Shown here: positions 1,740-47,124 of the stretch, piece after piece
Numbering within the stretch: the stretch's first letter is position 1
Layout: each line of letters begins with the position of its first letter
Assembly: GCF_050320075.1 (NCBI RefSeq)
Contig: NZ_CP190018.1
Strand: one strand, 5' to 3'
Length of the DNA: 64,000 nucleotides
Source: Escherichia coli
Lineage (GTDB): Bacteria > Pseudomonadota > Gammaproteobacteria > Enterobacterales > Enterobacteriaceae
Translations under genes and position numbers: made by a program
The notes under the pieces: model-generated
The model's input: the letters and a program-made list of their open reading frames with translations, nothing else
Database searches by the model: none
Told to the model about the DNA's origin: nothing

Positions 1740-5420
<3,681 letters not shown>

Positions 5421-6749: not shown

Positions 6750-7082
6750 ATGACGAGCAAAGAAACCTTTACCCATTACCAGCCGCTGGGCAACAGTGAC
6801 CCGGCTCATACCGCAACCGCGCCCGGCGGATTGAGTGCGAAAGCGCCTGCAATGACCCCGCTGATGCTGGACACCTCCACCCGTAAGCTGGTTGCGTGGG
6901 ATGGCACCACCGACGGTGCTGCCGTTGGCATTCTTGCAGTTGCTGCTGACCAGACCAGCACCACACTGACGTTCTACAAGTCCGGCACGTTCCGTTATGA
7001 GGATGTGCTCTGGCCGGAGGCTGCCAGCGACGAGACGAAAAAACGGACCGCGTTTGCCGGAACGGCAATCAGCATCGTTTAA
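6750..7082 (+). CDS. D: head decoration protein D
   Basis: 110 aa from second Met ([15 protein letters not shown]...), lambda gpD-like. Confidence 0.9.
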
Positions 7083-7102: not shown

Positions 7103-7124
7103 GGCCGCCTGTGCGGCTTTTTTT
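7103..7124 (+). terminator. hairpin plus T-run after D
   Basis: gccgc-ctgt-gcggc followed by ttttttt. Confidence 0.4.
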
Positions 7125-7191
7125 ACGGGATTTTTTTTATGTCGATGTACACAACCGCCCAGCTGCTGGCGGCAAATGAGCAGAAATTTAA

Positions 7192-7199
7192 GTTTGATC
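7192..7199. repeat. target-site duplication GTTTGATC (left copy)
   Basis: Identical 8-mer directly flanks both ends of the IS. Confidence 0.85.
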
Positions 7200-7229
7200 G
7201 TAAGCGACTCGTCAGAACCGTATTGATAT

Positions 7230-8801
7230 TTACTGAGAGCTCAGATCAACTTTCCAGGGCAACAGATCGCGTACCCGGTTTGCCGGCCAGTCCTGGATAT
7301 GTTCAATGACGTAACGCAGCCACTTTTCTGGCTCCACATTGTTCAGACGGCATGTGCCGATCAGCGAGTACAACACCGCCGCATGTTCACCACCGCTGTC
7401 GGAACCCGCGAACATCCAGTTTTTCCGGCCTACGGCCACTCCCCGTAAGGCGTTCTCTGCGATGTTGTTGTCGATTTCCACCCAGCCATTACTGCAGTAC
7501 ACGTTCAGTGCATCCCACTGTTTCAGCAGGTATGCGAACGCTTTTGCCGTATCTGAGTGACGCGACAGTGTTTTCATCTGTTGCTGTATCCAGTCATACA
7601 GTGACTGCATCAGTGGCGCGGCTCTGGCTTTTCTTGCCGCCAGACGCTGTTCTGCTGAACAGCCCCGGACCTCTGCCTCGATGGCATACAGTTCACCGAT
7701 ACGCTGCAGGGCTTCCGTGGTGATGTAGGTGGGCGCTCTTGCATGCACATCGTGGATTTTTCTCCGGGCATGAGCCATACACGCGGCTTCCGTTATTCTG
7801 CCGGATTCGTATAACGCCCGGTAACCACCGTAAGCATCGGCCTGAAGCACACCGCTGTAACCGGCCAGGTGATTTTGTGGATGGATACCTTTCCGGTCCG
7901 GACTGTACGCGAACCAGACCGCCGGGGGCATCTGTGAACCGGCGTTACGGTCATCACGGACGTAGACCCACAGCCGGGCTGTCCGGGTTTTACCGCTGCC
8001 CGGCTCCTGGACCGGGACGGGGATATCATCAGCATGGACTTTACCGGGCATCAGCACATACTGGCGCAGGACGTCATACAGCGGCTCCAGCAGTTCAGCA
8101 ACAGCACCTGTCCAGCGCCCCAGTGTGGCACGGCTCAGCTCCACTCCCTGACGACGGTATATTTCTGACTGGCGGTATAACGGCAGATGGTCTGCATATT
8201 TCCCGGTGACAACATGGGCCAGAAGCCCCGCTCCGGCATAACTGCGTGCAATGGGTTTTGAAGGTACTGGTGCCTGCACGATATGGTCGCACCGGCAACA
8301 GGCCTGTTTCGGACGTTGTGTTTCGATAACCTTAAAGGCGCTGCTGATAAGCTCCAGTTGCTCTGACACATCACATCCCAGAGAACTGAGTTCACCACCA
8401 CAGGCAGGACAGCATTCCTCTTCCGGCCGGATAACCCGGGTTTCACGGGGAAGTGAGGCCGGTAACGGTTTACGGGCTGAAGACTGGCGCAGGGCGGATG
8501 GCAGTACCGGGTCATATTGCTCACCCAGCGTTTCCGCCATTTCTTCCTGAAGTGCGCTGATTCGCTCCTGTGCTTCCTGTATCTGCCGTTCGGTTTTTGC
8601 ACGAAGTTTTTCTGAGCTTTTACCGAACTGCATACGTTGCAGTTTCGCAACCAGCGCCTTCAGCCGGTTGATTTCGGAAGCATAAGCCGCCACCCGCTGT
8701 GAGAGCAGGCGGTTGTATTCAGCCATCTGGCGGATGGTGTCCTGTTGCGTCTGCAACAGTGCCCGCAGGCGGGCGTTCTCATGAGCAAGTGAGGTGTCCA
8801 T
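7230..8801 (-). CDS. tnpC: IS66-family transposase (Orf3/TnpC)
   Basis: 523 aa; N-terminal coiled-coil/leucine-zipper region, CxxC...C zinc-finger-like motifs and IS66 transposase-like core. Confidence 0.85.
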
Positions 8802-8820
8802 ATCCTCACTTTACAACGGG

Positions 8821-9168
8821 TTATATGCGGATTCCAGCGCGTTCCGTTCGTTTCGGGTGCTTCCAGTTGATACCTTCAAGAAGCATGGATAACTGAGCCG
8901 GAGTAAGGTGCACCTTGCCGTCACGGGTGACTGGCCAGACGAAGCGGCCCCGCTCCAGGCGTTTGGTGAAGAGGCACAGTCCGTCACTGTCAGCCCACAA
9001 CACTTTTATCTGGTCACCCCGGCGTCCGCGGAAGATGAACAGGTGTCCGGAGAACGGGTCATCCTTCAGGACGTTCTGAACTTTTGATGCCAGGCCGTTA
9101 AAGCCATTTCGCATATCGGTGATACCTGCAACCAGCCAGATACGCGAACCTGCAGGGAGAGATATCAT
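8821..9168 (-). CDS. tnpB: IS66 Orf2 (TnpB) accessory protein
   Basis: 115 aa, typical IS66 orf2 sequence (…FIFRGRRGDQIKVLWADSDGLCLFTKRLE…); ATGA overlap with upstream orf. Confidence 0.8.
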   Translation of the reverse strand: MISLPAGSRIWLVAGITDMRNGFNGLASKVQNVLKDDPFSGHLFIFRGRRGDQIKVLWADSDGLCLFTKRLERGRFVWPVTRDGKVHLTPAQLSMLLEGINWKHPKRTERAGIRI

Positions 9169-9845
9169 CAGTGGCTGCTCCCTTTTATTTCGCGGATAAG
9201 TGTCTGTAATAACGCCGGCGTCAGTTTACCTTTAAGCCTGAGAGTTCCGGCCGGCAGAACCAGCTCACAACACAGACTGTCGGACGGTGTATTTATCTGC
9301 TCTGGTTCCTGTGCGGGGGCCGGGATTTTATTATCCGGCTCCGGCGTTAACGTCACGGGAAGCAGTGCCGGCATATTTTTTCCGGAAGGCAGCAGGCCAC
9401 CTTTCCGGTATTGATGGCGCCAGTTGAAGAGCAGGTTATCGTTGATTCCGTTTTCCCGGGCGATCTGCGCCACACAGGCTCCGGGCTGCAGTGACTGCTC
9501 CACTAAGGCGATTTTAAACTCATAAGGGAAGTTGGGCCGCCGGGGACGTTTTTTTACCACGGGGGCTTCGGATATAACGGTGCTTTCAGGACGTACGACT
9601 GGTACCGTGGAAAATTGTCCGTAAAGGCAGGCATCAAGTTCCTGCTCCGACATGCCTGCGGGCAAAGGCCACGAAAGGCCAGCTCTCCGAAAGCGCACGA
9701 ACATACTACAAACTGTTGATTTTGGTACACCCAGGCGACGCCCGGCCACAACCCGGGGTAAATGTTCTTCAAAGTGAAGACGTAAAGCTTCAGTGATCCA
9801 GGTCCGGTGTTTCATACGATAGTGTCCATTAAAAATGATGGACAT
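9168..9845 (-). CDS. tnpA: IS66 Orf1 (TnpA) accessory protein
   Basis: First ORF inside the element, 53 bp from the IS end, same strand as orf2/orf3; true start may be an internal Met. Confidence 0.65.
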   Translation of the reverse strand: MSIIFNGHYRMKHRTWITEALRLHFEEHLPRVVAGRRLGVPKSTVCSMFVRFRRAGLSWPLPAGMSEQELDACLYGQFSTVPVVRPESTVISEAPVVKKRPRRPNFPYEFKIALVEQSLQPGACVAQIARENGINDNLLFNWRHQYRKGGLLPSGKNMPALLPVTLTPEPDNKIPAPAQEPEQINTPSDSLCCELVLPAGTLRLKGKLTPALLQTLIREIKGSSH

Positions 9846-9898
9846 TATTTTTGTAGAGCCGGAGGAAACAGACCAGACGGTTTAAATGAGCCGGTTAC

Positions 9899-9906
9899 GT
9901 TTGATC
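9899..9906. repeat. target-site duplication GTTTGATC (right copy)
   Basis: Identical to 7192-7199. Confidence 0.85.
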
Positions 9907-10912
9907 CGCTGTTTCTGCGTCTCTTTTTCCGTGAGAGCTATCCCTTCACCACGGAGAAAGTCTATCTCTCACAAATTCCGGGACTGGTAAACATAGCGCT
10001 GTACGTTTCGCCGATTGTTTCCGGTGAGGTTATCCGTTCCCGTGGCGGCTCCACCTCTGAATTTACGCCGGGATATGTCAAGCCGAAGCATGAAGTGAAT
10101 CCGCAGATGACCCTGCGTCGCCTGCCGGATGAAGATCCGCAGAATCTGGCGGACCCGGCTTACCGCCGCCGTCGCATCATCCTGCAGAACATGCGTGACG
10201 AAGAGCTGGCCATTGCTCAGGTCGAAGAGATGCAGGCAGTTTCTGCCGTGCTCAAGGGCAAATACACCATGACCGGTGAAGCCTTCGATCCGGTTGAGGT
10301 GGATATGGGCCGCAGTGAGGCGAATAACATCACGCAGTCCGGCGGCACGGAGTGGAGCAAGCGTGACAAGTCCACGTATGACCCGACCGACGATATCGAA
10401 GCCTACGCGCTGAACGCCAGCGGAGTGGTGAATATCATCGTGTTTGATCCGAAAGGCTGGGCGCTGTTCCGTTCCTTCAAAGCCGTCAGGGAGAAGCTGG
10501 ATACTCGTCGCGGCTCTCATTCCGAGCTGGAGACAGCGGTGAAAGACCTGGGCAAAGCGGTGTCCTACAAGGGGATGTATGGCGATGTGGCCATCGTCGT
10601 GTATTCCGGACAGTACGTGGAAAACGGCGTCAAAAAGAACTTCCTGCCGGACAACACGATGGTGCTGGGGAACACTCAGGCACGCGGTCTGCGCACCTAT
10701 GGCTGCATTCAGGATGCGGACGCACAGCGCGAAGGCATTAACTCCTCTGCCCGTTACCCGAAAAACTGGGTGACCACCGGCGATCCGGCGCGTGAGTTCA
10801 CCATGATTCAGTCAGCACCGCTGATGCTGCTGGCTGACCCTGATGAGTTCGTGTCCGTACAACTGGCGTAATCGTGGCCCTTCGGGGCCATTTTCTCTCT
10901 GTGGAGGAGTCC

Positions 10913-19183: not shown

Positions 19184-22100
19184 ATGGGTAAAGGCAGCAG
19201 TAAGGGGCATACCCCGCGCGAAGCGAAGGACAACCTGAAGTCCACGCAGCTGCTGAGTGTGATCGATGCCATCAGCGAAGGGCCGGTTGAAGGTCCGGTG
19301 GATGGATTAAAAAGCGTGCTGCTGAACAGTACGCCGGTGCTGGACAGTGAGGGGAATACCAATATATCCGGCGTCACGGTGGTGTTCCGGGCCGGTGAGC
19401 AGGAGCAGACTCCGCCGGAGGGATTTGAATCCTCCGGTTCCGAGACGGTGCTGGGTACGGAAGTGAAATATGACACGCCGATCACCCGCACCATCACGTC
19501 GGCAAACATCGACCGTCTGCGCTTTACCTTCGGTGTGCAGGCACTGGTGGAAACCACCTCAAAGGGGGACAGGAATCCATCGGAAGTCCGCCTGCTGGTT
19601 CAGATACAACGTAACGGTGGCTGGGTGACGGAAAAAGACATCACCATTAAGGGTAAAACCACCTCGCAGTATCTGGCCTCAGTGGTGGTGGATAACCTGC
19701 CGCCGCGCCCGTTTAATATCCGGATGCGCAGGATGACGCCGGACAGCACCACAGACCAGCTGCAGAACAAAACGCTCTGGTCGTCATACACCGAAATCAT
19801 CGATGTGAAACAGTGCTACCCGAACACGGCACTGGTCGGCGTGCAGGTGGACTCGGAGCAGTTCGGCAGCCAGCAGGTGAGCCGTAATTATCATCTGCGC
19901 GGGCGTATTCTGCAGGTGCCGTCGAACTATAACCCGCAGACGCGGCAATACAGCGGTATCTGGGACGGGACGTTTAAACCGGCATACAGCAACAACATGG
20001 CCTGGTGTCTGTGGGATATGCTGACCCATCCGCGCTACGGCATGGGGAAGCGTCTCGGTGCGGCGGATGTGGACAAATGGGCGCTGTATGTCATCGGCCA
20101 GAATTGCGACCAGTCGGTGCCGGATGGCTTTGGTGGCACGGAGCCGCGCATCACCTGTAATGCCTGGCTGACCACGCAGCGCAAGGCGTGGGATGTGCTC
20201 AGTGATTTCTGCTCGGCGATGCGCTGTATGCCGGTATGGAACGGGCAGACGCTGACGTTCGTGCAGGACCGGCCATCGGATAAGGTGTGGACCTATAACC
20301 GCAGTAATGTGGTGATGCCGGATGATGGCGCGCCGTTCCGCTACAGCTTCAGCGCCCTGAAGGACCGTCATAATGCCGTTGAGGTGAACTGGATTGACCC
20401 GAATAACGGCTGGGAGACGGCGACAGAGCTTGTGGAGGACACGCAGGCCATTGCCCGTTACGGTCGTAACGTTACGAAGATGGATGCCTTTGGCTGTACC
20501 AGCCGGGGGCAGGCACACCGCGCCGGGCTGTGGCTGATTAAAACAGAACTGCTGGAAACGCAGACCGTGGATTTCAGCGTCGGCGCAGAAGGGCTTCGCC
20601 ATGTACCGGGCGATGTTATTGAAATCTGTGATGATGACTATGCCGGTATCAGCACCGGTGGTCGTGTGCTGGCGGTGAACAGCCAGACCCGGACGCTGAC
20701 GCTCGACCGTGAAATCACGCTGCCATCCTCCGGTACCACGCTGATAAGCCTGGTTGACGGAAGTGGCAATCCGGTCAGCGTGGAGGTTCAGTCCGTCACC
20801 GACGGCGTGAAGGTAAAAGTGAGCCGTGTTCCTGACGGTGTTGCTGAATACAGCGTATGGGGGCTGAAGCTGCCGACGCTGCGCCAGCGACTGTTCCGCT
20901 GCGTGAGTATCCGTGAGAACGACGACGGCACGTATGCCATCACCGCCGTGCAGCATGTGCCGGAAAAAGAGGCCATCGTGGATAACGGGGCGCACTTTGA
21001 CGGCGAACAGAGTGGCACGGTGAATGGTGTCACGCCGCCAGCGGTGCAGCACCTGACCGCAGAAGTCACTGCAGACAGCGGGGAATATCAGGTGCTGGCG
21101 CGCTGGGATACGCCGAAGGTGGTGAAGGGTGTGAGCTTTATGCTTCGCCTGACCGTGGCAGCGGATGACGGCAGTGAGCGGCTGGTCAGCACGGCCCGGA
21201 CGACGGAAACCACATACCGCTTCAGGCAGCTGGCGCTGGGAAGCTACAGGCTGACAGTCCGGGCGGCAAATGCCTGGGGGCAGCAGGGCGATCCTGCATC
21301 GGTATCGTTCCGGATTGCCGCACCGGCAGCGCCGTCGCGGATTGAGCTGACGCCGGGCTATTTTCAGATAACCGCCACGCCCCATCTTGCCGTTTATGAT
21401 CCGACGGTACAGTTTGAGTTCTGGTTCTCGGAAAAGCGGATTGCGGATATCAGGCAGGTTGAAACTACAGCCCGCTATCTTGGCACGGCGCTGTACTGGA
21501 TAGCTGCCAGTATCAATATCAAACCGGGCCATGATTATTATTTTTACATCCGCAGTGTGAACACCGTTGGCAAATCGGCATTTGTGGAGGCTGTTGGCCA
21601 GCCGAGTGATGATGCATCCGGCTATCTGGATTTTTTCAAAGGCGAGATAGGGAAAAGCCATCTGGCTCAGGAGCTGTGGACGCAGATTGATAACGGTCAG
21701 CTTGCGCCTGACCTGGCTGAAATCAGGACGTCCATTACGGATGTCAGCAATGAAATCACGCAGACCGTCAATAAGAAACTGGAAGACCAGAGTGCGGCAA
21801 TTCAGCAGATACAGAAGGTTCAGGTTGATACAAATAATAACCTGAACAGCATGTGGGCTGTGAAGCTGCAGCAGATGCAGGACGGACGCCTTTATATCGC
21901 GGGTATTGGTGCCGGTATTGAGAACACCCCTGACGGCATGCAGAGTCAGGTGCTGCTGGCGGCGGACAGGATTGCGATGGTTAATCCTGCGAATGGCAAC
22001 ACAAAGCCGATGTTTGTTGGTCAGGGCGATCAGATATTCATGAACGAAGTGTTCCTGAAATATCTGACGGCTCCCACCATTACCAGCGGCGGTAATCCTC

Positions 22101-22663
22101 CGGCATTTTCCCTGACACCGGACGGGCGGCTGACGGCGAAAAATGCCGATATCAGCGGTAACGTGAATGCGAACTCCGGGACGCTCAACAACGTCACGAT
22201 TAACGAGAACTGCCGGGTTCTGGGAAAACTGTCCGCGAACCAGATTGAAGGCGATCTCGTTAAAACAGTGGGTAAAGCTTTCCCCCGGGACTCCCGTGCA
22301 CCGGAACGGTGGCCATCAGGGACCATTACCGTCAGGATTTATGACGATCAGCCGTTTGACCGACAGATTGTTATTCCGGCGGTGGCATTCAGCGGCGCTA
22401 AGCATGAGAGAGAGCATACTGATATTTACTCCTCATGCCGTCTGATAGTGCGGAAAAACGGTGCTGAAATTTATAACCGTACCGCGCTGGATAATACGCT
22501 GATTTACAGTGGCGTTATTGATATGCCTGCCGGTCACGGTCACATGACGCTGGAGTTTTCGGTGTCAGCATGGCTGGTAAATAACTGGTATCCCACAGCA
22601 AGTATCAGCGATTTGCTGGTTGTGGTGATGAAGAAAGCCACCGCAGGCATCAGTATCAGCTGA
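19184..22663 (+). CDS. J: central tail fibre / host specificity protein J
   Basis: 1159 aa, lambda gpJ-like order and N-terminal/central sequence. Confidence 0.9.
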
Positions 22664-22682
22664 ATTTTATAGCCCCAATACG

Positions 22683-22706
22683 GGCGTCAGAAATGACGCC
22701 TTTTTT
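22683..22706 (+). terminator. hairpin plus T-run after J
   Basis: ggcgtc-agaaat-gacgcc followed by tttttt. Confidence 0.5.
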
Positions 22707-22730
22707 ATTGCAGAAAAGCGAGAGGTAATT

Positions 22731-23330
22731 ATGCGTAAATTATGTGCTGTTATTCTGTCCACAGTAGTCTGGCTGGTCGCCGCTGGTACGCCAGCGAGCG
22801 CAGCAGAGCATCAGTCCACACTAAGCGCCGGGTATCTTCAGACCCATACTGATATGCCCGGCAACGATGACCTGAAGGGCATTAACGTGAAATACCGTTA
22901 TGAATTTACGGACACGCTGGGGCTGGTGACGTCATTCAGTTATGCCAATGCCAAAGATGAGCAAAAAACGCATTACAGCGATACCCGCTGGCATGAAGAT
23001 TCAGTGCGTAACCGCTGGTTCAGCATGATGGCGGGGCCGTCTGTACGCGTGAATGAATGGTTCAGTGCTTATGCGATGGCAGGTGTGGCTTACAGCCGTG
23101 TTTCGACTTTTTCCGGGGATTATCTCCGCGTAACTGACAGCAAGGGGAAAACGCACGATGTGCTGACCGGAAGTGATGACGGTCGCCACAGCAACACGTC
23201 TCTGGCGTGGGGGGCTGGCGTGCAGTTTAACCCGACCGAATCCGTGGCCATTGATATTGCTTATGAAGGTTCCGGCAGTGGCGACTGGCGCACTGACGGT
23301 TTCATCGTGGGTGTCGGTTATAAATTCTGA
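22731..23330 (+). CDS. lom: Lom outer-membrane protein (Ail/Lom family)
   Basis: 199 aa with signal peptide, beta-barrel-type sequence ending ...GVGYKF; lambda lom position. Confidence 0.9.
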   Translation: MRKLCAVILSTVVWLVAAGTPASAAEHQSTLSAGYLQTHTDMPGNDDLKGINVKYRYEFTDTLGLVTSFSYANAKDEQKTHYSDTRWHEDSVRNRWFSMMAGPSVRVNEWFSAYAMAGVAYSRVSTFSGDYLRVTDSKGKTHDVLTGSDDGRHSNTSLAWGAGVQFNPTESVAIDIAYEGSGSGDWRTDGFIVGVGYKF

Positions 23331-23357
23331 TTAGCCAGATAACACAGTGTTATGACA

Positions 23358-23383
23358 GCCCGCCGGTTCAGGCGGGCTTTTTT
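23358..23383 (+). terminator. hairpin plus T-run after lom
   Basis: gcccgcc-ggttca-ggcgggc followed by tttttt. Confidence 0.5.
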
Positions 23384-23388
23384 GTGGA

Positions 23389-25794
23389 GTGGATATGGCA
23401 GCAGTAAAAATCTCAGGTGTGCTGAAAGATGGTGCGGGAAAACCAATACAGAACTGCACTATTCAACTGAAGGCAAAGCGTAACAGCACCACGGTACTGG
23501 TGAACACGGTGGCCTCTGAAAATCCGGATGAAGCCGGGCGTTACAGCATGGATGTTGAGTATGGCCAGTACAGCGTCACCCTGCTGGTTGAAGGTTTTCC
23601 GCCTTCGCATGCCGGGAGCATTACCGTCTATGAAGGTTCCAGACCAGGTACGCTGAATGATTTTCTCGGTGCCATGACGGAAGAGGATGTCATGCCGGAG
23701 GCATTGCGCCGTTTTGAGGAAATGGTGGAAGAAGCGGCACGCAACGCCGAAGCCGCCTCTCAGAGCGCAGCGGCGGCAAAGAAATCCGAAACGGCTGCGG
23801 CATCATCGAAGAACGCGGCGAAAACCTCAGAAACGAATGCAGCTAATAGTGCACAGGCGGCAGCGACCTCAAAGACTGCATCGGCAAACTCCGCGACAGC
23901 AGCCAAAAAATCAGAAACCAACGCGAAAAATAGCGAGACAGCCGCAAAGACGAGCGAAACCAACGCAAAGTCCAGCCAGACGGCAGCGAAAACCAGCGAA
24001 ACGAATGCCAAAGCCAGTGAAACTGCGGCAAAAAACAGCCAGGTTGCAGCAGCCCAAAGCGAGAGCGCGGCAGCCGGTTCTGCGACTTCAGCAGCTGGAT
24101 CAGCAACTGCTGCGGCTAACAGCCAGAAAGCTGCGAAGACGAGTGAAACTAACGCAAAGTCCAGCCAGACGGCAGCGAAGACCAGCGAAACGAATGCCAA
24201 AGCCAGCGAAACTGCGGCGAAAAACAGCCAGGTTGCAGCAGCCCAAAGCGAGAGCGCGGCAGCTGGTTCTGCAAGCGCGGCGGCTGCTTCTGCCACTGCA
24301 TCAGCCAACAGTCAAAAAGCGGCAAAAACCAGTGAAACCAATGCAAAGACAAGCGAGACTGCAGCGGCGAACTCGGCGAAAGCATCGGCAGCAAGCCAGA
24401 CAGCAGCTAAAGCAAGTGAAGACGCAGCCAGAGAGTATGCAAGTCAGGCAGCAGAGCCGTATAAATATGTCTTACAGCCACTGCCTGATGTGTGGATACC
24501 GTTTAACGATTCACTGGATATGATTACGGGCTTTTCGCCGTCATATAAAAAAATTGTTATTGGTGATGATGAAATAACGATGCCTGGCGACAAGGTTGTT
24601 AAGTTTAAACGCGCATCAACTGCCACATATATCAATAAATCAGGCGTATTTAGTGTTGCTAAAATTGATGAGCCACGATTTGAAAAAGAAGGTTTATTGA
24701 TTGAAGGACAGCGCACTAACTATTTTGTTAAATCCAATACTCCCGCTGAATGGACGAGTACCAGCAATATCGATAAAACTAATAATGGTGTTGATGAATT
24801 TGGTTTTTCATATGCCAAAATGCGAACAAAAGATAATATGACAGGACAATCATCTGCACTTAGTCTGCATACATGCAGTGCATCCCGGGGGATTGATGTT
24901 AGTGGCGATAATAAGTATTGCACTGTTTCATGCAGGGTTAAAGCTCCTGATGGTCTTCGTTGTCGTTTGCGTTTTGAAAAATACGATGGGTCGGTTTATA
25001 CATTTTTAGGAGATGCTTATTTAACTTTCGGAACTCTGATAATAGAAAAAACTGGCGGAGCAGCCAATAGAATAGCAGCTACTGCAACTAAAGATCCGGT
25101 TACAGGGTGGATTTTCTATGAGGCAACTATAGAAGCTGTTGAAGGTGAAGCCTTAATTGGCGCAATGATTCAGTATGCGCCGAAAAAAGGTGGTATAACT
25201 GAAGCGGGAGATTATATTTACCTTGCAACACCACAATTTGAAAACGGCGGATGTGCTTCATCTTTTGTTATTACGACAACTGCACCCGCAACCCGCTCCA
25301 GTGATATGGTGACGATCCCAACTGAAAATAATATCTATAATAGACCGCTTACGTGTCTTGTCGAGGTCAATAGAAATTGGGGCGATATTCCTCCTAATGT
25401 AGCACCGCGTATTTTTGATTTTTCTGGTGTGCCACCTATTGAGTCAATTACATACGCTTTTAACACAACTGAGAAATATTACGGTCAGCTTTATATACAA
25501 ACTTATAAAGCGTTGACAAGTACTTACGTTTCTAGTGTGTTTGCTGGTCGAACTGATGTTCGAAAATTCATTGGTGGTTTTAATATTTATTCTGATGGTA
25601 CTAAACGAGTAGTTTCTAACGGTGAGGCTACTAAAACTATGAAAACGGAGTGGACGGGCGTAAAAACACGGACCTTTATTCGAATTGGAGGTCAAGCCAC
25701 ATCGGGAACTCGTCATCTATTCGGCCATTTGAGAAATCTTCGTCTCTGGCATAAAGAATTAACTGATGCGCAAATGGGGGAGAGTATTAAATGA
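23389..25794 (+). CDS. stf: side tail fibre protein (Stf-like), chimeric: lambda-like N-terminus, repeat shaft, AT-rich divergent C-terminal domain
   Basis: 801 aa; N-terminal ~100 aa match lambda Stf as recalled (MAVKISGVLKDG...); internal Ala/Ser/Thr/Lys repeats; composition shifts to AT-rich from about nt 24480. Confidence 0.85.
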   Translation: MDMAAVKISGVLKDGAGKPIQNCTIQLKAKRNSTTVLVNTVASENPDEAGRYSMDVEYGQYSVTLLVEGFPPSHAGSITVYEGSRPGTLNDFLGAMTEEDVMPEALRRFEEMVEEAARNAEAASQSAAAAKKSETAAASSKNAAKTSETNAANSAQAAATSKTASANSATAAKKSETNAKNSETAAKTSETNAKSSQTAAKTSETNAKASETAAKNSQVAAAQSESAAAGSATSAAGSATAAANSQKAAKTSETNAKSSQTAAKTSETNAKASETAAKNSQVAAAQSESAAAGSASAAAASATASANSQKAAKTSETNAKTSETAAANSAKASAASQTAAKASEDAAREYASQAAEPYKYVLQPLPDVWIPFNDSLDMITGFSPSYKKIVIGDDEITMPGDKVVKFKRASTATYINKSGVFSVAKIDEPRFEKEGLLIEGQRTNYFVKSNTPAEWTSTSNIDKTNNGVDEFGFSYAKMRTKDNMTGQSSALSLHTCSASRGIDVSGDNKYCTVSCRVKAPDGLRCRLRFEKYDGSVYTFLGDAYLTFGTLIIEKTGGAANRIAATATKDPVTGWIFYEATIEAVEGEALIGAMIQYAPKKGGITEAGDYIYLATPQFENGGCASSFVITTTAPATRSSDMVTIPTENNIYNRPLTCLVEVNRNWGDIPPNVAPRIFDFSGVPPIESITYAFNTTEKYYGQLYIQTYKALTSTYVSSVFAGRTDVRKFIGGFNIYSDGTKRVVSNGEATKTMKTEWTGVKTRTFIRIGGQATSGTRHLFGHLRNLRLWHKELTDAQMGESIK
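23945..24322 (+). repeat. two tandem ~189-bp (63-codon) near-identical repeats inside the stf shaft
   Basis: aacgcaaagtccagccagacggcagcgaa... recurs at 23962 and 24151; embedded in a longer array of shorter AAKTSETNAK-type units. Confidence 0.75.
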
Positions 25795-27458: not shown

Positions 27459-27608
27459 AAAAAGGTGGGCTGTATATGCAACGGAGGAAGAAACCACGTT
27501 GCTGGAAGCCTGGAAGAAGTATCGGGTGTTGCTGAACCGTGTTAATACAACAACTGCACCGGATATTGAATGGCCAACAGTACCCATTATCGAATAGTGC
27601 ATTACGAA

Positions 27609-27670: not shown

Positions 27671-29002
27671 TTATTTTGAGTGAATTATCACCTTGTTTTT
27701 TCCGGTTCTTTTGGCTTGATATAACGCTTTGTCGGCATTGACTAACATTTCAGATGGACTGAGATTATTCTCTTTTGAAGCAAAGCAACCAATACTGACA
27801 GTTATTTTCTCAGGTCCATGCGATAATAATTTTTCCGAGCATTGCTCTTCAATGTTTTTTCTGATTCGCTCTGCAATTGATAGCAAGAGTTTTTGAGTAT
27901 TACCTTTAATGATAATACCGAACTCCTCACCGCCTAAGCGCCCTAATATATCCTCTTTCCTGATGGATTTTTTTATTATTCTGGTAACCATTACTATGAC
28001 TTGATCACCCATATGATGCCCCCATTTGTCATTGATGCTTTTGAAACTGTCAATATCTAACATTATTACTGAGAAATCATGGTGTTTTGATATATTCTTC
28101 AATGAGTCAATAAAGTATCTTCTATTGTATGTATTCGTTAGTGGATCATGAATTGCCATATGATTAGCATGATTTAATTTCCTGAAAACATAATACATGA
28201 GTGTTGAAATGATATAAATCATTGATATCAATTCAAGAAATTTTGTCATGTACCATGCAGGATGGGATTTATCAATAAAATACAATAAAATTAGATTATT
28301 GCATACTGACACTATACTAATAAGTATTATACACAACCATATTTTTGAGTAATTACGTATGCTGATGCATGAGCTGATAAGTAATACAAGCCAAAATACT
28401 GATATTATTTTGGTGTACACGATATTCCACGTCGACAAATGACGATTCAGCGAGTATTGTATAATATTAAGACTATATTTTATATGGTCACTGCTTAGAT
28501 TTTTTGCTACAAACGGAGTAATAAAAAGAATTAATATTGACAAAACAACAATTATTATGTTTCTTTTATCTTCTAAAATACTTTTATTTTTAACATTGGT
28601 GGAATAAACAGCCAGAAAGATTATAGATATAAAGCTGAACTGACGGAATAGATAATATATTGCGATATCATTTGATTTCTGATAGATTGTAGATAAATCG
28701 TTACCTAACGGAGATAAAGAAATAATAGCCACTTCTAATAAATAATACGTGTTGCTCAAAAACGCGAATGAAAGAATTAAGAGATAACTTTGTCTCTGAT
28801 TAGAAACATAGTAAAGCAATAGAAAAATAAAAATCATCAGGTTTATGAAAAAAAGCCCAATAATGAAAACACTATAACTTATTTGTGTTGTTTGTGTTAT
28901 GTATATTCCATTATTTTCATGCAGTAACAAAAATATAATAGAGATGCATGAAAATAAAAAGATGAAGATTTTTATTTTTATAGGTACCTGGTTGATAATC
29001 AT
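27671..29002 (-). CDS. membrane-anchored GGDEF-domain diguanylate cyclase (N-terminal polytopic membrane domain of unrecognised type)
   Basis: 443 aa; SD AGGTG 6 nt upstream; C-terminal GGDEF motifs incl. RKEDILGRLGGEEF (I-site RxxD + GGEEF); about 8 hydrophobic helices N-terminal; extremely AT-rich. Confidence 0.85.
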   Translation of the reverse strand: MIINQVPIKIKIFIFLFSCISIIFLLLHENNGIYITQTTQISYSVFIIGLFFINLMIFIFLLLYYVSNQRQSYLLILSFAFLSNTYYLLEVAIISLSPLGNDLSTIYQKSNDIAIYYLFRQFSFISIIFLAVYSTNVKNKSILEDKRNIIIVVLSILILFITPFVAKNLSSDHIKYSLNIIQYSLNRHLSTWNIVYTKIISVFWLVLLISSCISIRNYSKIWLCIILISIVSVCNNLILLYFIDKSHPAWYMTKFLELISMIYIISTLMYYVFRKLNHANHMAIHDPLTNTYNRRYFIDSLKNISKHHDFSVIMLDIDSFKSINDKWGHHMGDQVIVMVTRIIKKSIRKEDILGRLGGEEFGIIIKGNTQKLLLSIAERIRKNIEEQCSEKLLSHGPEKITVSIGCFASKENNLSPSEMLVNADKALYQAKRTGKNKVIIHSK

Positions 29003-38298: not shown

Positions 38299-38845
38299 TA
38301 TGTATTCCCTTGTGATTATAATCTTCATGAATATATCAATAAGTGCCGTTATCCAAAAAAAAGCACATTTGGATACTATTCTATGAAGTTCATTTTATTT
38401 TAAAGATTACATGTAACAAATATATTTAAAAGATTTCAAAATGTTTCTAATCTATTTAATATAATTCAGAATTATGAATTCTAAATATAAATATTCATGA
38501 AAATTATAAATGTATATCAATATGTTATGAGTTGAGCGGAAACATAGGGGGTATCAATGATTGTTGCGCCAAACGGCTGGTGTGATCACGCGCACATTAA
38601 TGAAGGCATAAAAAAAGCCGGCATCATGCCGGCCCAAAAAAAATAAACAAGACGATAAAAGGCTAATAACGGAAGCATCATGACACAGAATAATAAAAAG
38701 GTATAATTGTAATCAGTGCTAATATATTGATTGAATGAATTAATAAAGCCGATATCAAAGATAAATAAAATCGCTCAAAACGATTTTTCCTGTATTCACT
38801 GCCGTTGCGCAAAAATTATCTATTTGTTCAAAAAATGATTGAGTC

Positions 38846-47037: not shown

Positions 47038-47124
47038 AACACATCAGATTTCCTGGTGTAACGAATTTTTTAAGTGCTTCTTGCTTAAGCAAGTTTCATC
47101 CCGACCCCCTCAGGGTCGGGATTT
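47038..47124 (+). ncRNA. dsrA: DsrA small regulatory RNA
   Basis: aacacatcagatttcctggtgtaacgaattttttaagtgcttcttgcttaagcaagtttcatcccgaccccctcagggtcgggattt matches DsrA as recalled, incl. terminal hairpin plus U-run. Confidence 0.9.

Follow-up and report, generated by a model that had tools for sequence, protein, structure and literature searches.

The gene lom of this Escherichia coli prophage lies between two hairpins, each followed by a run of T, and the question raised by the locus is whether gene and hairpins make up an autonomous moron, expressed in the lysogen from a promoter of its own, or a dependent part of the late operon in which they sit. A moron, as defined for HK97 and HK022 (Juhala et al. 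2000; reviewed in PMC3594210), is an additional gene that brings a promoter and a terminator of its own and has an atypical G+C content, and the literature counts lom among the moron products made by the lambda prophage (PMC3594210, PMC7067206). The gene as such is already known: in the order J-lom-stf it is a textbook lambda accessory gene, present in roughly three out of four complete E. coli genomes, and finding it is by itself nothing new.

The lom gene and its prophage setting

All positions refer to the window, the whole 64,000-nt stretch of DNA that was analysed. Between about 1190 and 27600 it holds the head and tail genes, the late region of a lambda-like E. coli prophage, and the chromosome of strain YZLc1-3 differs from the window at only 7 positions across the first 27.8 kb; within 22400-23700, YZLc1-3 and a second strain, Ec-U3, are 100% identical to it. 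The features on which the argument turns are the following.

19184-22663, plus strand: gene J, tail tip/host-specificity protein, 1159 aa (ORF, Pfam, PGAP)
22682-22709, plus strand: HP1, hairpin (stem 22682-22689/22694-22701, loop GAAA) and T-run (scan, folding)
22710-22730, plus strand: 21-nt leader GCAGAAAAGCGAGAGGTAATT with Shine-Dalgarno GAGAGG at 22720-22725 (sequence)
22731-23330, plus strand: lom, 199-aa ORF
23357-23383, plus strand: HP2, hairpin (8 pairs, 7 of them G-C, loop GGTTCA) and T6 (scan, folding)
22710-23382, plus strand: lom-specific DNA, 673 bp, comprising leader, lom and HP2 (empty-site alignment)
23384-25794, plus strand: stf, side tail fibre, with RBS GGAG at 23386-23389 and ATG at 23395 (Pfam phage_tail_N; PGAP CDS 23395-25794)

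J carries the Pfam domains Phage-tail_3, Ig_J, FNIII-A_GpJ, Ig_GpJ_C and Phage_Tail_Tip and is labelled 'gpJ' by PGAP in the near-identical genome NZ_CP123240.1, and the start of stf aligns with that of lambda stf. Pfam matches and ORF context confirm that an Ail/Lom gene is embedded in the late (tail) operon of a lambdoid prophage, as the initial annotation had proposed.

The product of lom matches the Pfam family PF06316 (Ail_Lom) from end to end (1-199 of 199 residues, E 3.5e-126, 419 bits against a gathering cut-off of 23) and PHROG 108, 'Lom outer membrane protein' (E 2e-106). Among solved structures, lambda Lom comes closest (PDB 9wso, E 6e-50), ahead of OmpX (1qj8) and Ail (3qra) at E values of about 1e-18, in each case over residues 26-199. 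By eye, the translation opens with a Sec signal peptide (MRKLCAVILSTVVWLVAAGTPASA/AEHQ, cleavage ASA/AE) and closes on ...GVGYKF, with a terminal aromatic residue as in outer-membrane beta-barrels, and the protein is predicted to be the precursor of an 8-stranded outer-membrane beta-barrel. Two NCBIfam models score below their cut-offs (Rck, 121 against 258; OmpX, 103 against 176), and on these scores Lom is an equivalog of neither.

Several further observations concern the surrounding prophage. An IS66-family element (ISCro1-like, 7140-9960, genes at 7230-9845 on the minus strand) interrupts the major capsid gene E about 20 codons from its start, with an 8-bp duplication, GTTTGATC, at 7192-7199 and 9899-9906; since it splits E, the prophage is defective, and lom is nevertheless intact. 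Downstream of lom, stf contains at 23895-24366 a tandem repeat of 189 bp (2.3 copies, 85% match) whose 21/42-bp subrepeats code for Ala/Ser/Thr/Lys-rich ...KTSETNAK... units, with a local AT skew of up to 0.6. Between 24400 and 26400 the G+C content falls from about 55% to 37-43% over the C-terminal half of stf, a small downstream ORF and a tail-fibre gene, which indicates a mosaic receptor-binding module of different origin. The prophage ends in the remnant of a tail-fibre-assembly gene (27478-27597), and next to it an AT-rich diguanylate cyclase gene (27671-29002, minus strand), annotated as frameshifted in YZLc1-3, forms an intact 443-aa ORF in the window.

Two hairpins and the extent of the lom insert

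HP1 reads GGGCGTCA-GAAA-TGACGCCT (22682-22701), continues as TTTTTTATT to 22709, and begins 19 nt past the J stop, its 8 pairs being followed by U6AUU. HP2 reads AGCCCGCC-GGTTCA-GGCGGGCT (23357-23378), with T6 at 23378-23383, and lies 27 nt past the lom stop. Folded in short context, HP1 reaches -14.1 kcal/mol (z -5.1) and HP2 -18.6 kcal/mol (z -3.6), values equalled in none of 200 shuffles for either. The initial annotation had placed the Ail/Lom gene between two such structures, and its coordinates agree with ours to within 1 nt. In a scan of the whole window on the plus strand, the two hairpins rank third and about fifth (-17.6 kcal/mol for HP2 and -13.0 kcal/mol for HP1), energies comparable to those found for the terminators of two sRNA genes of the same window that served as positive controls, DsrA (terminator 47098-47122; gene 47038-47124, plus strand) and RseX (terminator 38634-38616; gene 38610-38699, minus strand), both genes scoring above the Rfam gathering threshold.

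Both hairpins are intergenic, stand directly after a stop codon and combine a G+C-rich stem-loop with a U-run on the coding strand, features that fit putative intrinsic terminators. We rejected bidirectional terminators, the T-runs of HP1 and HP2 lying on the plus strand only, as well as assignment to an Rfam family, 22500-23500 giving only sub-threshold chance matches (Trp_leader, 22 bits; a human lncRNA). Luk and Szybalski reportedly mapped terminators downstream of J; our literature search for 'tJ1' terminators found none, and a preprint on lambda sRNAs deals with other parts of the phage. In the lom 3' UTR there is also a perfect 7-1-7 palindrome (ATAACAC-A-GTGTTAT, 23339-23353), whose core TAACACAGTGTTA aligns with lambda; about four such palindromes are estimated to occur by chance per 64 kb, and this copy is notable only for its conservation.

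Might the two hairpins be inverted repeats that arose by chance and have no function? A generic scan of the surrounding 10 kb counts 11 terminator-like sites against 10.3 in shuffled sequence, a total that by itself speaks for chance, but HP1 and HP2 are the top two of them and occupy exactly the two intergenic gaps, and the shuffles never folded as well. Conservation points the same way. Across 80 related viral contigs, in which leader and Shine-Dalgarno are invariant, the HP1 stem occurs as GCGTCA/TGACGC, GCGCCA/TGGCGC and GCACCA/TGGTGC, with one G-U intermediate, so that pairing is kept through compensatory changes between GC and AU and between CG and UA at two stem positions. In the covariation count, 93.7% of cells are paired and 7 are changed on both sides, values of which neither is reached in 500 shuffles, and slid controls are paired at 37-62%; the sole unpaired row is lambda, which has another hairpin sequence shifted by a few bases. 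HP2 is nearly invariant in 60 of the 80 related loci and in lambda, which amounts to conservation with no covariation signal. Besides, lambda, the Stx1_14040 type, the L042-type spacer and Gifsy-1 form a hairpin and T-run at the same places from differing sequences. With this evidence, we regard a chance origin as scarcely credible.

Cargo genes are not alone in having such hairpins. Between D, the head decoration gene (ending at 7082), and E (starting at 7140), the hairpin GGCCGCCTGTGCGGC (7103-7118), with T7 spanning 7103-7127, is an intrinsic-terminator-like element of the late operon that flanks no cargo gene, and another stands between J and stf in phages that have no lom.

Those lom-less phages delimit the insert. 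Querying with the 3' end of J joined straight to the 5' end of stf retrieved phages in which the two genes are only 58 nt apart, among them 4A7, ev087, PhiR47_2 and ev017, all with a J-HP1-stf junction. This lom-less junction is shared by 29 phage records, phage 21 among them, and by 1193 of 5426 E. coli genomes, one of them Nissle 1917; in OL657228.1, the record of phage 21, HP1 bears the label 'terminator'. HK97 and HK022 were dropped as empty-site references, their J and stf DNA not being alignable and giving no boundary. The two arrangements compare as follows.

Lom-less junction: J-stop ATTTTATAACCCAGATAC-[HP1]-TTTTTTATT / TGTGGAGTGAAT-ATG(stf)
Window junction: as the lom-less left part to 22709, then GCAGAAAAGCGAGAGGTAATT-lom-3'UTR-HP2-TTTTT, then TGTGGAGTGGAT-ATG(stf)

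Aligned by eye with four lom-less loci (L085-L088), the breakpoint falls at ...GCCTTTTTTATT/TGTGGAGTGAAT ATG(stf), and the boundaries of the insert hold to within 2 nt on either side owing to a T microhomology. Because lom-less relatives carry the same HP1 with the same flanks, HP1 is best read as the resident terminator of J, outside the insert. HP2 is absent from the lom-less junctions and lies inside the insert, and would be the terminator carried by the lom cassette. By the same alignment lom appears as optional DNA, and either its gain or its loss could account for the difference.

The full arrangement is widespread. Matches to at least 80% of the length of the 1.3-kb J-lom-stf segment come from 4064 of 5426 complete E. 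coli genomes and from 161 phage records, among which Stx-converting phages are numerous. Its right-hand end varies. In L042-type loci (20 loci; L042, 2600-2752), a 150-nt lom-stf spacer, beginning at the lom stop and unrelated to the usual 3' UTR and HP2, has its own strong terminator (-20.5 kcal/mol) directly before the stf RBS. In five related loci, of which L017-L019 (at about 2650-3260) are listed, the shared sequence ends a few bases past the HP2 T-run, at …GGGCTTTTTTGTG/CACAGAAAACCCC, and in the one locus examined, L019, the break is followed by an IS200/IS605-type transposase gene.

Promoter signals and the expression of lom

An autonomous moron would have its own nearby promoter and be expressed constitutively in the lysogen, with both terminators belonging to the unit. 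The two flanking terminator-like hairpins, the optional character of lom and its designation as a prophage-expressed moron product of lambda agree with this explanation. Against it stand the occurrence of HP1 with the same flanks at so many lom-less junctions and the geometry of the insert, which leaves no room for a promoter, just 21 nt, RBS included, separating the HP1 T-tract from the ATG. The upstream region of its own with which the initial annotation had credited lom therefore shrinks to these 21 nt, the hairpin before them being part of the J-stf backbone.

Promoter scans are of a piece with this geometry. A tool-based scan returned no promoter-like site on the plus strand near lom, and a weight-matrix scan of the 435 nt upstream gave no sigma-70-like promoter above background, the best site scoring 6.9 against a median block best of 7.9, and 65% of the window's 435-nt blocks reaching at least 6.9; such consensus scans miss weak, activator-dependent and alternative-sigma promoters, and an atypical promoter overlapping HP1 is also possible. 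In 22664-22730, where the initial annotation had suggested that a promoter be sought, the sole site has its -10 hexamer on the lom ATG and therefore cannot serve lom. No promoter site is common to the window, lambda, Stx1_14040 and PhiR30_1 alleles. A PhoP box, as for the pagC and rck relatives, was considered and discarded, none lying near lom and the nearest being at 22262-22278 on the minus strand; across the window, the pattern KGTTTA-N5-KGTTTA with at most 2 mismatches occurs 23 times against 12.9 expected (0 of 100 shuffles reaching 23), an excess that may merely reflect T-rich segments. To our knowledge, the lom promoter has never been defined.

Composition gives no signal of foreign origin either: the G+C content of lom, 53.3%, matches that of its neighbours (51.8% in the last 900 nt of J, 55.7% in the first 900 nt of stf; 54.9% in the prophage part of the window), which again speaks against an autonomous moron. 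Two of the four sequence features of a moron, optional DNA and an own terminator, are thus found in lom, and the other two, an own promoter and an atypical G+C content, are not. The initial description of lom as a self-contained moron stands in so far as the gene is optional and HP2 is its own; it gives way in that HP1 belongs to J and no promoter is evident.

Published expression data bear on both sides. Lambda lom is reported as expressed from the repressed prophage (PMC7067206, PMC3594210, PMC12366544), and in one lambda lysogen study it was not detected (PMC2147009), a result that counts against an autonomous moron. Phage phi24B has a distant lom that is expressed constitutively and independently of induction (PMC3342100, PMC4651098), and some promoter is therefore implied there; this and the reports of expression from the repressed lambda prophage speak against a gene without a promoter. 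Taking these reports together with the sequence, we judge an autonomous moron unlikely here, though a serious contender.

Our preferred reading, to which we give a probability of about 0.6, is that lom forms a cargo cassette of about 673 bp with no promoter, placed behind the J terminator and transcribed mainly late and at most weakly in the lysogen. A lambda-type late operon is transcribed by Q-antiterminated polymerase. The cassette would consist of RBS, lom and the intrinsic terminator HP2, set immediately behind a pre-existing HP1, and the two hairpins would stop ordinary RNA polymerase on the plus strand. In lytic growth, polymerase that started at the late promoter and was modified by Q would pass both of them, placing J, Lom and Stf on one transcript, a read-through that fits statements, in PMC9836094 and PMC12366544 (both citing Liu et al. 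2013), that lambda Lom is strongly raised late in the lytic cycle. In the repressed prophage, lom expression would be low, coming from a weak or factor-dependent start that lies upstream of HP1 or overlaps it, or else from polymerase leaking past HP1. HP2 would re-create a terminator directly ahead of the stf RBS, the position in which one is found in every junction variant (L042 type, Gifsy-1, HK022 cor). Lom would then be exported by way of its signal peptide and take its place in the outer membrane, where lambda Lom, according to PMC3594210 and PMC12366544, is linked to adhesion (to epithelial cells, as cited in PMC3594210) and, when overexpressed, blocks lambda adsorption.

A plainer possibility is that lom is an ordinary late gene without expression of any consequence in the lysogen, its hairpins being mainly mRNA 3'-end or stability elements or partial terminators that set dosage along the antiterminated late transcript, and Lom acting late, for example by stopping progeny phage from adsorbing to infected cells or debris. 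This would suit the hairpins that part non-cargo late genes (D-E, and J-stf in lom-less phages), the empty promoter scans, the late rise of Lom and the joint transfer of lom with the holin gene (PMC9836094), as well as the protection that overexpressed Lom affords against lambda-vir and not against T7 (PMC12366544, where a section heading credits the protein class with blocked adsorption). It is at odds, however, with the reports of lom expression in lysogens (PMC7067206, PMC12366544), with plaque formation not needing lom (PMC10695390) and with lom having stayed intact although the capsid gene of its prophage is destroyed, a persistence that points to a gain for the host cell and not for virions. 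We consider this explanation improbable, and the promoterless cassette remains our reading of the locus.

Lom alleles and comparison with known systems

The allele in the window is the common E. coli prophage and Stx-phage type, 97% identical to that of phage 2G7b. Its protein is 48% identical to the Stx1_14040 type, and its leader is 72-77% identical to those of lambda-type and Stx1_14040-type alleles. A sharply bounded block at 23240-23400, comprising the last ~90 nt of lom, the 3' UTR with the palindrome, HP2 and the start of stf, is 80-100% identical in all allele types, whereas the lom bodies of the same alleles share 32-60% DNA identity and HP1 lies in the divergent part. As HP1 and the lom body diverge and the 3' block is conserved, the two terminators do not delimit the unit of allelic exchange. 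That HP1 diverges together with lom in the Stx1_14040 and lambda types nevertheless runs counter to the promoterless model and in favour of an autonomous moron, for by these alignments the two can apparently travel together.

A stronger version of the late-cargo idea would make lom, set without a promoter behind the J terminator, essentially late-operon cargo and no unit of lysogenic conversion; its main selected role would be late in the lytic cycle or in protecting kin, by keeping sister phage from adsorbing to infected cells or debris, it would be expressed in the lysogen by terminator leakage only, and the conserved 3' block would be the recombination linker for swaps between alleles as divergent as 46% identity; this we offer tentatively, as a possibility that we rather doubt.

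The closest known system is lambda lom itself (NC_001416, 18965-19585, between J and stf/orf-401), which occupies the same slot and belongs to the same Pfam family. Lambda and the window share the order J, hairpin and T-run, 21-22 nt leader with GAGAGG, lom, hairpin and T-run, stf, and are 80-98% identical over the last ~90 nt of lom, the 3' UTR, HP2 and the start of stf. Lambda differs in its Lom, which has 206 aa against 199 in the window and 46% identity, and in its HP1, which has another sequence, is weaker (-9.7 against -14.1 kcal/mol) and carries the T-run TTTTATT.

The J-stf slot holds other cargo elsewhere. In HK022 (L084, 4690-6030) it contains two ORFs, the exclusion gene cor and a terminator, and in Gifsy-1 (L094, 2080-2496) an 80-aa hypothetical ORF whose terminator 3' arm and T-run, GGCGGGCTTTTTT, resemble HP2. 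Like lom, cor and the Gifsy-1 ORF are small genes in this slot with a terminator directly before the stf RBS; unlike lom, they encode unrelated proteins and follow upstream spacers of at least 121 nt, which could hold promoters. At the level of the protein, Ail of Yersinia, OmpX and Rck/PagC belong to the same homologous family of 8-stranded beta-barrels (Ail/Lom/OmpX), their genes being chromosomal or plasmid-borne, in contrast to the window's lom, which is prophage-borne and embedded in a tail operon.

What the window adds to this picture is a refinement: the cassette appears to bring a terminator and no promoter, and the upstream terminator belongs to the tail-gene backbone, which sharpens the question of the lom promoter and cautions that a terminator-flanked prophage gene is not automatically an autonomous moron. 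Set beside the morons of HK97 and HK022, lom differs in having neither a recognisable promoter nor room for one, in its ordinary G+C content and in an upstream terminator that is part of the backbone; it resembles them as a single extra gene relative to collinear relatives, with its own downstream terminator and a host-affecting surface protein as its product.
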